Notes under the pieces: model-generated | The model's database searches: none | The model's input: only the letters and a program-made list of their open reading frames with translations | Told to the model about the DNA's origin: nothing | Translations under genes and position numbers: made by a program | Part shown: piece after piece, positions 29,601 through 30,746 of the stretch | How the letters are laid out: each line of letters begins with the position of its first letter | Position numbering within the stretch: the stretch's first letter is position 1 | IMG/VR virus record: IMGVR_UViG_3300035189_000033 | Location: 22,539-86,538 of that record | Strand: one strand, 5' to 3' | Source of the DNA: a virus | Length of the DNA stretch: 64,000 nucleotides

Positions 29601-30746
29601 GAAGGCATCGGCCGCGCCAGCGTGGATCTCGACAGCTACACCGGGAAGCACTTCACGCCGGACGAACTTGCCCGCCTGAAAGCGGCGCGTGACAAGGTCG
29701 CCGCCGCCGAAGCAAGGCAATTGGCGAAACGCCAGTCAGCCAGCAACCGCGTTTCGCCATGGCCCGACGGTGGCGCCAACTTCACCGATCTGCTGCATGA
29801 AGCGCCCGAGCAGGGCCACGGCGAAGCCGGTGACTGGACCCGCCAGAAGGGCATCGACACCAACCACGAGCACATCGCGGTGGTGGATAATGCGACTGGG
29901 CGGATTGTGCATGCCGGGACGAACAATCAGCGCCGTGAGGTGGATTTTCCGCACGCCAATGTCGCCGGCACCACCGACACCGTCACCCTGCATCACAACC
30001 ATCCGAACAGCACGGGACAGTCGCGGGAAGATACCGTGTTCATGGCAAACCCCGGCGTGAGCCACATGGTTGTGCATGGGCACGACGGATCAACATCGAT
30101 CACGACGCTGGGGCCGAATGCCGGGTTTGTGCGGTCCGCTGATGATATCGCCGCGAACGGCAAGACCCTGGGTGCGGCGTATGACCGGGCTGACGCGACA
30201 TCCCACCAAGTGCTGCGCGAGCGGGTTATCGCGGGCGACGTCAGCGAAGATGTGGCCGGACAGTTCCGCGCGGAAGTTGCCAACCGCTTGCTGAACGCAG
30301 AGGGTATAATCAGCTACGTGTCTACCCGAGAACTGGTGCCCGCGATCAAACTGGCTGTGGGCAAGAAACTAAGGAGTCTAGGCTACGATGAGCGGCAGAT
30401 TGATCGATCCACCGGACGAGTTCGCCCCGAAGAGCGAGTTGCAAGCCTTCCTCGACCAGTACAAGGCGGACCCGGACCCGAACGTGAAGCGGATGGTGCA
30501 GCAGGTAACGGGGTACTTGCAGGACAAGGACAAACCGATGTCGCAGCGCCGCCAGATCAGCCCAGCAGACCAGATGCAGCCCCGCAAGAGGCGGTAGGCG
30601 GCGACAAAAGCGGTATCCGCAACGCGCTGCGCTGGATCACCGGCCGTGCGCCGAAGCGTGGCGGGCTTGCCGAGACGCCGAACGCCCTGGCCGCTATAGC
30701 CGCACGCCCGGCGCGTCCCTCGAACAATGCCCTCGCGAGGCTGTGA
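17697..30746 (+). CDS. Giant DarB-like polyvalent ejected protein (amino-MTase, SNF2 helicase, EVQSDWHQ domain, JAB/MPN-like domain), 4349 aa
   Basis: TAATG-coupled start 17697; NAHYT, VLEPSMGVGNF, IGNWPF; HEVGTGKS, DEAH, TGTP, QRNGR; HEVQSDWHQ; E...HNHPNSTGQSRED. Confidence 0.92.
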   Translation: MPLDGADDGAWLVPDKPVGKAPRAPDFDLIPDPPAKQAAADDSGDWLVPDRPRAAVAQPAAQPAALAPAQPAARPASAQTAPVQQMPPLDELGIGQLGPQTGAPPGQKPVEVGQPGVNMLAAIAQGAKAGWQGGAFQEQPGLVDAELQTLKTPVYGSGPTAMPGFAAVPAVTGLAGHVINQALGALGGGFTSGVVQAGEEVGPKLGGPQLARDYLGYLQAIGNEIGMGGVFAPKTIAEAESGANTRIFRGGSPGPGDSPGRVLNWDVIEQRPPAPPARSVPGVKRSEVDIQLESDAFLIAHPETAAIYDKYHGEGAAQKVLDAAAKKPEGGKPQATTPTAASAAPAKPAEEPPKPSASDDTVKTATKPTGPTAPKIRTISQIQKEDGVGYNEAARRRDAEKLVAQLVSSAAAPTAADAGTPAPDGAPAAGDTGTVTTSETRPTKLKPGQRFHEYPDSALVADGLREGDEITTSAGDKFTVLGVFAHNRNRPDLGNRIDIRWDNGKEVSFKPRDLESVLVPHYYYDANTGERKLGEGATIQRAKAAAEDAATGGKGTSDEPPVATAADSATTAPAPADAGTAPPAPRPVSQIQAEDGVPLGTAVQTHEAEKLAAEQALTTTEQPKADEPDLENAHEGPWEAAGTNAEGETVYRNPKGRLATFDAGVPWLGAADGSDDDNKRLKVVKPVEAAAAPEPRPVEQIQAEDGVGLGAAVQTHEEEKEAAKKAEQEAAGETEKPEKKPAAKKAKPAAAEPEDEAPAEPAAEPSGDQKTPGKSGIKANEKPQQTQPAQSPSGSLVMAPIGDDYFPPVQSGQKLRTQSGRDITVPTFSSGSNRADNLARRKLNAWLADETRKEVAASGADSYLAGIVAGMNPKNMSQTDRDTASDILFGADGPKAAPKAEPAKKPAAAPEAAAPATPVTKPFTSQDIGTKVRPKPGSGLDPVKNAGIISHVQTSPQGPKISVNGGPHFLGSDFERVPEAIPVTPEALHDRIIAQLQADTRLQAVLSNAEESPDGARETVRKAYRAALGQMLADADMPDLHAIAAASDALRDRPIGMDDVREITAARPGAAPEPAAEATGTPTTDAKPAAPAPAATRTITPEEPTYDPKDEDQRNAPVGEFGWRDLGGGYDYRFGETGDDRVRRRFIQVRILDNYNDPTDWFTWNTVRAESLDMTLQAPLVHSYVRKGRDGEMEPDEVWPEHGPEIEHRLREAAKQQGDQQGLPAPDLQTPGGSAISETQESADGDRPDSAEVGEPTGGGPRASGAGARKPKGNRPAATLAPESAEDDAPAGLSGDGGEAGVRPGSEAVGGAPAVHSGGDAATGRGGTGDEGVVPDGAGGRTPNPAVTRPNFHIDDPKRIIGGTGPKQRFARNRAALKALEDIQAEGRDPTQEELETMAGFIGWGSFGQEVFQGSFERQPYRDGWEEEGRWLREHLGKEAWDSARDSIRNAHYTDPPTVAAMWDMVRHMGFWGGRVLEPSMGVGNFFGLMPRDLMGQSDLTGIEKEKTTGEMAKLLYPHAGIHVRGYEESKTADNFYDLVIGNWPFAAQSPPDRRYDRLSPSLHNYFFLKALDQVRPGGLVVGITSNGTMDSAGRAARLEMAKKGKLIAAFRLPSGAFKDYAGTSVVADIIILQKRAQPLANAVDEPWIDATEMSTGHGDIRVNRYFQDHPENVLGTLDWGHGTTSGRPGMIVHRPDDLEQRLQALAATLPTDAYQPVIRGKEPRFLVNNTTDRHGSIVIGDDGHLYQVQGERLTRLDDLKSGMTTGPAKVVKAREDQVRRMVAMRKAYGALIDAERDGKPEADTLRKSLKAQYDQFRAEHGPIGKSDGLRVLDRMKDPGRSAVESLERPDGTPSPILTEPTVRSRRSLENPSIADAFVLARNEQANFDLDRVAELTAKPRAAVEDVLLDQGAIMRTPGGGFEATDDYLSGNVRRKLREAKEALAAGDEKMQPSIDALTKVLPPDTPYYNIEAKLGATWVGDDAYRSFIGDLLNLTPDQRAGVDVRFTGSRWRVRFGDRAINGKAEARTVHGHEDYPFNQLIMAAMGNRSVKITYRDDDNVKHTDDKATEEVNAKVQDLKEKFTDWAWSDPERKVAFEQAFNETMNAIAKPRFDGSFMDMSGMALRRGNDPFSMRRHQLNAIWRGVALGRGLFAHEVGTGKSYTMAGIAVEGRRYGKFRKPVVFAHGANSAAVAQEFQDMYPGGKFFYISTLKPDQIATSLRRIANEDWDAVIMPHSLIDRMALTKPTLVALAAEQIAELENAAIEAAAEDDITLTPEEIYSLIEESKTDKKAMGRLRSPTAKDVVRQIQSLLNNIEKQASRASKEDAVPFEQLGIDAILVDEAHEFKKPPFATAMKMRGLNTQSSDRSIALDFLTKYVKANNAGKGVFLFTGTPVTNTLNEIFNMARYFMDDRMADAGIKEWDAWFNTFADATNDIELTSTGEIEPVKRLAAFNNVDELVRQMSEFVDVVQAKDMPEFKPRPTPSGKTLTSPDLTAEELDFLMNGRTLKPEGRPYVKVMTDVGEMSPAQVDILDELRELAREFKTADGKQKKEWMQEGDERVPIRIETNSANTGIDPRLYNPDAPDTEDSKINRIVRNVLRHYGEPDAAQAIFLDRGFNPVKSSEGRASRFVVVDELIAKLVEGGIPREQIAVVAGGMKAEKKKEIADGMNSGKYRIAIGQSGTLGVGVNMQERLRAIHHFDAPWRPGDLEQRNGRMNRQGNTWNMAYEYRYVTEGIDGRRWQVLQVKDKFIKAFIAAFNDTSGKRIGNIEGDAADMSEDEDFSKTLSAAAGDPRIMIRAKYKADVERLQRRERLHTRGQAEAIQLARSRRPIAQRLQEQAAAQGRYADRWEASVARAAKAAEADGDDRKWYEIDGDKAQAAAKIANLETSLAGWDDQIAKARKALQEAKTANNRFEHIERRLDRLIGAKNRAQAAVETVRSTGRWFDTGADLQDTLDKAITEVARGEKRKLATVGGFDIVGNWSSPFNFFEAPRIEIYDPASGEVVDWVTGLTVLRIANELNQRRQKQQSWATDAAEKMASIPALEAAGKQDFPQQEKLTKLRQQLAKLEDDLQANPNPPPSWLRNGAPIDTDIYVDGEPRTVRGHRVVDDYFLVTDEGEVPYLAAMDANGLRMFTVHEPPQVVSRETPDWVKPHLEATKGVSEGDPHVWHGELVWHNRDLALIRGTTNLWGPDETAFLGFKKGVPAEPGRNLIGMMSPKGFKPQEWERLGEARDDYVAREANKAALAAAAQPTPASGFQPTPGLDWTVDETERWVRGLPRGGLAEGSGGISVPLYSAVQRAADALKQAKGTGQQMLAQIVKTPGVKPEEIEWMGLDDWLKSQPSVTKQQIQDFVAANRLEVREVTKGDYRARLEPAHTAVSEAADRRQIAAERLERGVDQNGYTVEIDGERLYHDEIMRGLADGAIKPGDLPVAHGLRSRAALFVEAVADEAQAEAKLKQAQERVRANPDPTKFGGWLAPFQPTDQYREIVFTLPAPEPSPAGDIERLQNGKFRVTYGGSGDVFATRAEAEAETRRLGEIFNKTNDSRVFRGGHWSERNVVAHVRFDVVEAPDGARVLMVHEVQSDWHQAGRKKGYQTGEKPKGAGNFMDWTARQGISADDAGRIWEYREKGDPNTPDNVIYARWRQESDAAIAAIDRWNHAVPDAPYKTTWPTLVMRRTIKYAVDNGFDRIAWSPGAVHADRYDLSKQISRVEYDQSPNNPEGGSFKAFDKSGRAVINRYAKTAELPDMIGKAAADKLLAQKPEGDGITRGNSLKRTLRGLDLKVGGEGMTGFYDDILPKTVQKIVGKYGARVGKSEIPTGGGNAAARAEYAQEIEDIEAAIVHNEAAGAEEHYLDQLRDQLAEVEAQMMQDTMDRSAQPGASAVHSFDITPALRDAVRTEGMALFERKPGGADRPASPAPATKPTWATPLASDINGTVAWQSKGLALIQGHSISGKRIYVPAKEGIGRASVDLDSYTGKHFTPDELARLKAARDKVAAAEARQLAKRQSASNRVSPWPDGGANFTDLLHEAPEQGHGEAGDWTRQKGIDTNHEHIAVVDNATGRIVHAGTNNQRREVDFPHANVAGTTDTVTLHHNHPNSTGQSREDTVFMANPGVSHMVVHGHDGSTSITTLGPNAGFVRSADDIAANGKTLGAAYDRADATSHQVLRERVIAGDVSEDVAGQFRAEVANRLLNAEGIISYVSTRELVPAIKLAVGKKLRSLGYDERQIDRSTGRVRPEERVASLPRPVQGGPGPEREADGAAGNGVLAGQGQTDVAAPPDQPSRPDAAPQEAVGGDKSGIRNALRWITGRAPKRGGLAETPNALAAIAARPARPSNNALARL
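21378..21419 (+). promoter_or_regulatory. Internal promoter and SD for nested gene 1
   Basis: TTGCAA(21378)-N17-CATATC(21401), with GCCATATC resembling alphaproteobacterial -10 boxes; AGGAG at 21415-21419. Confidence 0.65.
21427..21777 (+). CDS. Nested +1-frame gene, TnpV-like helical protein (116 aa)
   Basis: SD 7 nt before ATG; QHWLQNRPKMMHRLDSAG...AGMPPPDAEEQAMREWCLMEPE; the host frame here is a low-complexity linker. Confidence 0.75.
   Translation: MAIDPTVLKWVNRQVADLAHRGLVPGSPRETDLLQHWLQNRPKMMHRLDSAGMAEKLAFVLDQKRWEARQQYIAAGMPPPDAEEQAMREWCLMEPEDEPQTQPLPAPISTLTTQSE
30388..30597 (+). CDS. Nested +1-frame small gene (69 aa)
   Basis: AAGGAG at 30371-30376, TATAAT at 30305-30310; MSGRLIDPPDEFAPKSELQAFLDQYKADPDPNVKRMVQQVTGYL is amphipathic and globular. 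Confidence 0.65.
   Translation: MSGRLIDPPDEFAPKSELQAFLDQYKADPDPNVKRMVQQVTGYLQDKDKPMSQRRQISPADQMQPRKRR

Follow-up and report, generated by a model that had tools for sequence, protein, structure and literature searches.

A small-protein gene probably embedded in the +1 frame of a giant phage polyvalent-protein gene, directly behind a JAB-like domain

In phage lambda the whole of the gene Rz1 lies within Rz, in its +1 frame, and in related phages the two genes are embedded, overlapped or separated. Here we describe a 64,000-nucleotide stretch of viral DNA (hereafter the window; positions 22,539 to 86,538 of the IMG/VR virus record IMGVR_UViG_3300035189_000033) in which an open reading frame (ORF) of 69 codons lies in the +1 frame of a gene for a giant phage protein, immediately behind the part encoding a putative JAB/MPN (JAMM)-like metal-enzyme domain. 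This nested ORF is very probably a real, separately expressed gene; its product belongs to a real, previously undescribed protein family that we define here as the LIDPP family, and is likely to be a functional partner of the JAB-like domain. The likeness to Rz/Rz1 lies in a small gene placed wholly within a larger phage gene in the +1 frame, in products thought to cooperate, and in the occurrence of both layouts among relatives. The systems have no sequence or functional relation, however: the host here is a 13-kb polyvalent gene and the partner an enzyme domain, the embedded gene occupies an inter-domain linker rather than a folded part, and there is no membrane-spanning complex.

The giant protein is of the phage polyvalent type; Iyer et al. 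2017 (PMC5512222) described such proteins, some with RadC-type JAB domains, in phages and conjugative elements. The assignment follows from helicase matches within the giant ORF and from homologs bearing N6-methylase, helicase, lysozyme and ART-PolyVal Pfam domains. Like the described proteins it combines methylase, helicase and JAB-like modules in one giant multi-domain chain; its gene stands among virion genes, and the protein presumably undergoes packaging and injection, but no Pfam model, those of RadC and JAB included, matched its JAB-like domain at E ≤ 0.01 in the five members searched. The word ‘overlapping’ does not occur in that paper, which mentions no embedded genes.

MuF polymorphic toxins of temperate phages are encoded with a downstream immunity ORF, and many proteobacterial MuF C-terminal extensions are without a known domain (Jamet et al. 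2017, PMC5576092, a paper with zero occurrences of ‘JAB’). Two loci related to the window, L008 and L010, resemble this layout, with a MuF protein that ends in a JAB-like domain and is followed at once by a small ORF (two in tandem in L008). The window differs in that its small gene lies inside the reading frame of the putative effector and not after it, and in that toxicity and immunity of the pair are here inferred. The pairs Tox-JAB-1/Imm65 and Tox-JAB-2/Imm-NTF2-2 are known from polymorphic toxin systems (Zhang et al. 2012, PMC3482391). As in those systems, a divergent JAB fold with E, HxH, S and D residues forms the end of a delivery protein, in strict pairing with a single family of small proteins, and a single weak Pfam match, in one of the five members, was to Toxin-JAB1 (E 0.09). 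The partner is however neither a lipoprotein, as Imm65 is, nor NTF2-like, but a predicted 45-residue helical hairpin with a proline-rich N-terminus, and delivery would be by the phage head rather than by RHS proteins or the type VI or type VII secretion systems.

In overprinted and overlapping genes of small viruses, phiX174 among them (reviewed in PMC8227390), one DNA stretch likewise serves two frames under asymmetric constraint. There the new frame arises de novo within an old gene, whereas the gene embedded here has free-standing relatives and a normal codon signature, so that the ‘new’ reading appears to be the linker of the giant protein. A literature search, limited in reach, found no description of the LIDPP family or of the embedded layout.

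Evidence for a gene in the +1 frame

An earlier note, made from the letters of the window alone, had proposed a gene of 69 codons with its ATG at 30388, nested in +1 within a long ORF. The start codon and the ORF were confirmed (Table 1), and the gene itself was borne out by a switch in codon-position composition, by homologs that occur elsewhere as called proteins and as free-standing genes, by conservation beyond what the giant frame imposes and by independent contigs free of indels. The encoded protein begins MSGRLIDPPDEFAPKSELQAFLDQYKADPDPNVK. The length of the ORF is by itself uninformative, because alternative-frame ORFs are abundant in DNA of 64% GC, as the window is; dozens of at least 50 amino acids (aa) lie inside the giant ORF. 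The giant ORF as a whole has a GC content at third codon positions (GC3) of 0.76. Within the nested stretch, the GC contents at the first, second and third positions of the nested frame were 0.60/0.37/0.89 and that of the giant-frame third position fell to 0.37; 3′ of the nested stop the giant-frame third position regained the highest GC. In a sliding scan of the 13-kb ORF (150 nt), the GC peak shifted to the first codon position of the giant frame at three places, 30342-30640 (the nested ORF), 21312-21790 (another nested ORF) and 17802-18040, plus one isolated window at 18942. Across 15 nested lineages, GC3 was 0.57-0.93 in the nested frame vs 0.30-0.53 at the giant third position.

Contigs from an independent peat sample (X2) reproduced the stretch with zero differences and zero indels, and a variant strain in run X3, about 97% identical, carried substitutions and no indels. 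An assembly frameshift, by which the giant protein would truly end in the +1 peptide or at TAA 30370, was rejected on the strength of these independent samples, and is further ruled out by a +1 frame that is stop-closed and non-protein-like 5′ of the ATG and by the recurrence of the layout in 14 other loci. Among 26 of the 30 X3 differences, 24 fell in 29771-30380, one in the nested ORF and one in the tail, a distribution taken as no more than a weak hint. The listed change inside the nested ORF, 30569 A>C, converts D61 to A in the small protein and R to S in the giant frame, and agrees with the database protein P0003.

Both frames are under selection, unequally. The two frames were compared over the first 22 codons in 14 lineages, each against a null in which only the other frame is selected. 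Nested protein identity was 0.459 vs 0.194 ± 0.012 expected from the giant frame alone (z=21), and giant-frame identity was 0.364 vs 0.282 ± 0.016 expected from the nested frame alone (z=5.2). Independent codon sampling is a fair null here because synonymous sites of the flanking JAB region are saturated between lineages (same-codon fraction 0.40-0.54 vs 0.43 expected), and the giant-frame null is conservative because it used the codon usage of the nested ORFs themselves. Rare codons that give the giant frame a particular residue were retained, namely Leu TTG in 7/7 lineages and Asp GAT in 12/14. Between the window and its relative L002, 5.7% of sites differed in 30388-30492 vs 19.6% in the JAB-only region (Fisher p=2e-4); for the second half of the nested gene the figure was 23.8%, and for the tail 33.6%. 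The giant frame was open in all 15 nested lineages, where its probability of staying open is 0.045 if the nested protein is held constant and its synonymous codons are chosen randomly; the third frame had stops in 14 of the 15.

The long frame had also been said to be read through, and it is indeed open, selected and followed by a conserved tail or by further domains. In the window the giant-frame tail reads IRNALRW...GGLAETPNALAAI...NNALARL-stop; compared with L002 it contains a 6-nt indel, which leaves it in frame, and the stop codons align. The distant homologs P0008 and P0011 share the ending GGLAE..NALAA..NALAR, P0011 after an extra 290-aa module, and other giant homologs run hundreds of codons into further domains. 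Translation of the giant frame must therefore continue across the nested gene, since a conserved NAL[AR] tail or whole further domains lie beyond it.

Signals around the start point to separate initiation. An ATG stands one to five codons before LIDPP in five of the six nested lineages compared closely, and free-standing members likewise start M-x(1-4)-LIDPP. A nested-frame stop lies at most six codons upstream of the ATG, again in five of six, with the TAA of L006 abutting the ATG; stops this close leave almost no room for a frameshift fusion, which argues for initiation at the ATG itself. A purine-rich stretch is found 5-12 nt upstream of the ATG in most nested lineages. Two nested-frame stops flank the Shine-Dalgarno (SD)-like motif of the window (Table 1), and in the X3 strain 30380 A>G turns the TAG into TGG. 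The AAGGAG that had been singled out in the earlier note is where it was placed, at 30371-30376, but is not conserved in the close relative. Much the same holds for the TATAAT made with a rare ATA codon: the hexamer is present, but as a conserved element it failed, being GATCAC in L002 (81% identity) and TATCAT in the X3 strain (30308 A>C). The remark that it lacks a well-spaced −35 box agrees with zero sigma-70-like promoter matches in 29800-31300. For both reasons, the missing match and the missing conservation, the hexamer was dropped as a promoter. The nested gene is most simply read from the messenger RNA of the giant gene itself.

Table 1 Features of the nested locus in the window.
Feature	Coordinates	Strand	Remarks
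Gene of the giant polyvalent virion/ejection-type protein	17652..30746	+	Uninterrupted ORF; host of the nested ORF
Predicted JAB/MPN (JAMM)-like metal-enzyme domain with C-terminal helical extension	29781..30398	+	Giant frame
TATAAT hexamer	30305..30310	+	Includes the frame-0 ATA codon 30306-30308; probably not functional
Two nested-frame stops	30370..30381	+	TAA 30370-72 and TAG 30379-81, flanking the SD-like AAGGAG 30371-76
Very probable nested +1 gene, 69-aa LIDPP-family protein	30388..30597	+	ATG 30388, stop 30595-30597; wholly inside 17652-30746
Core of the dual-coding stretch	30400..30492	+	Nested frame LIDPPDEFAPKSELQAFLDQYK; giant frame IDRSTGRVRPEERVASLPRP
Giant-frame C-terminal tail	30598..30746	+	Three NAL[AR] motifs (IRNALRW, PNALAAI, NNALARL-stop); GC3 0.78

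The LIDPP family and its pairing with the JAB-like domain

Searches with the 69-aa protein established a real family. A word-indexed search returned two near relatives, and exhaustive phmmer against 1.84 billion representatives returned 11 proteins of 58-218 aa. Members share the motif [LM]-[IL]-D-x-P-x-x-F-x-P (LIDPPxPFxP; MSGRLIDPPDEFAP in the window) at most about six residues from the start, and I6, D7, P9, F12, P14 and F21 were invariant in 12-15 members. Pfam, PHROGs and NCBIfam contained no family model for the small protein. Its AlphaFold2 (AF2) model, built from a shallow alignment, predicts an extended N-terminus, a helix at 15-25, a DPDP turn, a helix at 31-48 and a basic disordered tail, with a predicted local distance difference test (pLDDT) score of 73.5 overall and 85-88 over residues 11-40. 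A Foldseek search of the PDB with this model was negative: the best E was 2.6, and the structures returned were generic helical hairpins. Pattern scans of viral, genome and metagenome collections recovered nested as well as free-standing copies; in the free-standing ones the other two frames were stop-closed, and the frame that the giant proteins use contained stops in 17 of 18. Pairing giant homologs with small proteins by codon compatibility, without DNA, yielded only pairs that were already known.

The domain encoded upstream is predicted to be JAB/JAMM-like on two grounds, an invariant motif and a list of fold matches. Residues E30, H72, H74, S81 and D84 (alignment numbering; E...HxH...S..D) were invariant in seven diverse sequences, the spacing from the second H to S being, as read from the sequence, one residue below the canonical value. 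The AF2 model of the domain (pLDDT 90) had its best PDB fold matches among JAMM/MPN structures, led by JAMM1 (Z 7.3 over 110 residues at 3.5 Å) and followed by an Rpn11 homolog, BubCD, AMSH and CSN5; these Z values are middling and the fold match therefore counts only together with the E/HxH/S/D motif. A PDB profile search of the JAB region gave nothing significant, and neither PHROGs nor NCBIfam held a family for the domain, except that the giant-protein family phrog_10691 matched the JAB region of the L010 MuF protein.

The small gene and the domain proved to be closely linked. IMG/VR was scanned with the JAB-like domain, giving 29 loci, and the hidden Markov model of the small family was then run behind the domain. 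The outcome of this check, which the earlier note had suggested, was clearly positive: in 26 of the 29 viral loci the domain is directly followed by a family member, and in two of the other three a small ORF, divergent but alike in design, occupies this position. Fourteen of the 26 family members are nested, all in +1, inside giant polyvalent proteins whose frame runs on for 96 to more than 833 codons past the nested gene. The remaining 12 are separate genes, each starting no more than about 20 nt from the stop codon of a gene for a protein of about 500-640 aa with a C-terminal JAB-like domain. In the window the nested ATG falls within the last codons of the JAB-like domain region. The earlier remark that the locus mimics a toxin domain followed by an immunity gene holds as to arrangement, the small gene standing where an immunity or partner gene would, behind the E...HxH...S..D domain. 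A case apart is L013, where the ORF at 2769-2987 has upstream of it only a C-terminal remnant of the JAB-like domain (E 2.6e-6).

Profile comparison by hhalign aligned the window domain with the C-terminus of the MuF protein of the Brevundimonas prophage L010 (99.1% probability, E 6e-19) and with that of L008, a betaproteobacterial metagenome-assembled genome or virus (98.7%, E 4.5e-16). In both of these MuF head proteins the small gene follows as a separate gene. L008 (equivalent to L032, L007 and L014) carries two tandem, slightly overlapping LIDPP paralogs (2787-3020 and 3001-3228) behind one MuF-JAB gene, and this pair sits between the portal and the DUF2213 scaffold/protease genes. Stand-alone copies are located in head-morphogenesis modules, between MuF and scaffold or capsid genes.

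In a tree of the JAB-like domain, a well-supported clade comprised 11 nested lineages and another clade 14 separate ones. The nested and separate labels required two changes on this tree vs a mean of about 10 after shuffling, and 0 of 500 shuffles were as low, indicating that embedding arose once or very few times and is old and stable. The branches along which the embedded state persists measure about 1 substitution per site.

Proposed role of the small protein and alternatives

The explanation that we favor, and to which as a whole, with its inhibitor role, we would give an even chance, runs as follows. The nested gene would be translated separately from its own ATG behind the purine-rich SD-like stretch, most likely on the same late messenger RNA. 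Its product would be a folded module of about 45 residues, in which the LIDPPxPFxP peptide packs on a helical hairpin and behind which comes a basic tail. The JAB/JAMM-like domain encoded just upstream would have this product as its dedicated partner. Simpler phages have the pair as two ordinary genes, the small one right after the stop of the domain-bearing protein. In the giant proteins, modules would have been fused downstream by read-through across the partner gene, and not by de novo overprinting, with the giant frame using the alternative reading of the partner gene as a linker rich in G, A, R and P that leads, in the window, to the NAL[AR] tail. By binding to the JAB-like domain the small protein may hold it inactive, or otherwise control it, in the virion-producing cell, as an immunity protein of a MuF toxin would. 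Of the cognate inhibitor proposed in the earlier note, the cognate partner is well supported; that it is specifically an inhibitor or antidote is suggested by analogy of gene order, and we hold this part tentatively, at slightly under an even chance. It was placed first because the stand-alone layout fits MuF toxin-immunity modules (PMC5576092) and because Tox-JAB domains are strictly paired with their partners (PMC3482391).

The rival that survives best accepts a real JAB-linked gene and assigns it another role, as a chaperone of assembly or packaging, as an activator or cofactor, or as the substrate or tag of a JAB-type enzyme; it could, for instance, assist in loading the head with the giant protein or work together with that protein once both are ejected. 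We consider such a role unlikely but a serious rival; it draws on the same genomic association as the inhibitor and nothing separates the two readings. It is favored by the presence of stand-alone copies within head-morphogenesis modules, by nearest structural matches that are JAMM enzymes acting on small ubiquitin-like partner proteins, and by LIDPP-like modules beside or fused to other peptidase types. On the other side, the tandem copies and the position behind a C-terminal effector-like MuF domain fit a toxin-immunity layout (PMC5576092), and in the AF2 model the small protein is a helical hairpin with no ubiquitin-like fold.

A bolder form of the inhibitor reading, which we regard as quite improbable, would have the +1 frame encode the JAB inhibitor while the giant-frame reading DRST..RPEER[VI]A.LP is itself selected, for example as a processing site, tether or docking site recognised by the enzyme or the inhibitor, both readings of one stretch of 100 nt thus being functional. 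If true, an enzyme, its regulator and a regulatory site would be locked in one piece of DNA and inseparable by recombination, and giant injected phage proteins would carry antidote genes out of frame in their own linkers.

Programmed frameshifts are used by phage structural genes, and a +1 (or −2) shift near 30382-30400 might append the LIDPP module to the giant protein, giving two C-terminal variants that end in that module or in the NAL[AR] tail. In keeping with such a shift, the frames overlap without a giant-frame stop and nucleotide conservation around the junction is very high. The window for shifting, however, is only a few codons wide given the stops upstream of the ATG in five of six lineages, no conserved slippery sequence was found, the ATG is conserved at the junction and free-standing homologs begin with the same motif, which together make this alternative very improbable. 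An unexpressed ORF, whether a chance open frame or a decaying relic absorbed as linker, would suit the frequency of alternative-frame ORFs at 64% GC and the uninformative RNA runs, but is just as improbable in view of the GC3 signature in 15 lineages, of protein conservation at z=21 beside saturated flanking synonymous sites, of the conserved start codon and of an embedding kept over about 1 substitution per site, since a relic would lose frame and motif.

Several observations weigh against the partner and inhibitor explanation. Some lineages have a weak SD-like motif or a different one, and in L015 no ATG stands near the LIDPP motif. In the RNA runs X22 and X24, contigs were found only on the downstream DUF29 gene (31050-31300) and on a 34-nt piece at 29954-29987, and nowhere on the nested ORF; these runs are uninformative on expression. 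Constraint at the RNA level, and not protein function, could account for part of the conservation by which the giant frame exceeds its expectation. LIDPP-like modules also occur outside the JAB context: the one of L011 (~2977-3171) follows an SRAP peptidase gene, that of L012/L016 follows cas1-cas2 with no JAB domain nearby, and in L017 (183-1043) a LIDPP-like N-terminal module is fused to a Peptidase_M78/IrrE-like domain. Because such distant LIDPP-like ORFs occur without a JAB domain, the role of the module may be broader than JAB inhibition. Divergent RadC or Tox-JAB clades have been suggested to be nucleases rather than peptidases (PMC5512222, PMC3482391), and any toxicity or activity of the present domain is putative.

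Under the favored explanation, that of a dedicated partner gene embedded by fusion, the locus has consequences for annotation and for function. A gene enclosed entirely by a 13-kb ORF is out of reach of gene callers, and a conserved family would therefore be systematically missing from phage annotations, while what looks like a low-complexity linker of a giant protein would be the other reading of a gene. Through the small protein the uncharacterised JAB-like domain, as found in polyvalent proteins and in those of MuF type delivered by the head, would become more accessible to study, and its retention despite the cost of dual coding would imply that the JAB-like activity needs control in the producing cell. 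The locus would also constitute a natural case of gene embedding by fusion of neighbours across a gene, with a measurable asymmetric constraint on two frames.

The giant gene, its other embedded ORF and the neighbourhood

The record containing the window (86.5 kb) recurs across many peat metagenomes. Its gene neighbourhood is that of a P22-like podovirus, with a P22-type coat, head-closure and DNA-ejection genes and a 1019-aa protein with a tail-lysozyme domain. The giant ORF comprises 4364 codons if it starts at GTG 17652 and 4349 if it starts at ATG 17697. Directly 3′ of the overlap with the upstream gene (15562-17697) lies the N-terminal stretch 17802-18040, where GC peaks at the first codon position (0.86-0.90). 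This shift probably reflects low complexity rich in A and P, encoded by GCN and CCN codons.

The other embedded +1 ORF of the giant gene, at 21427-21777 (+ strand; 116 codons), lies in a stretch rich in G, A, D and P before the methylase-helicase part. It shows a similar switch, with GC contents of 0.68/0.44/0.81 in its own frame and 0.44 at the giant third position. Conservation of this ORF was 84% in G001, the closest relative; four phages at a greater distance yielded no copy, and Pfam gave no match.

NAL[AR] occurs three times within the C-terminal 41 residues of the giant protein, and the motif recurs in both adjacent large proteins of the virion module, close to the C-terminus of the following one (31723-34782; residue ~983, with another at ~510) and to the N-terminus of the preceding one (15562-17697; residue ~45). 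Some giant homologs end ...APPP or ...TPP instead. Proteins loaded into the head may carry the motif as an address or as a processing signal.

Downstream, a DUF29 gene (30781-31239, − strand) converges on the giant gene and was the sole match of the window in a blastn search against a plasmid collection. A piece of this gene of about 60 nt (31070-31122) is common to many unrelated contigs from peat metagenomes and metatranscriptomes, and is a conserved core of very wide occurrence, unless the gene is a mobile one. In run X3 its summed depth reached 900, with many loose ends at 31070 and 31107.

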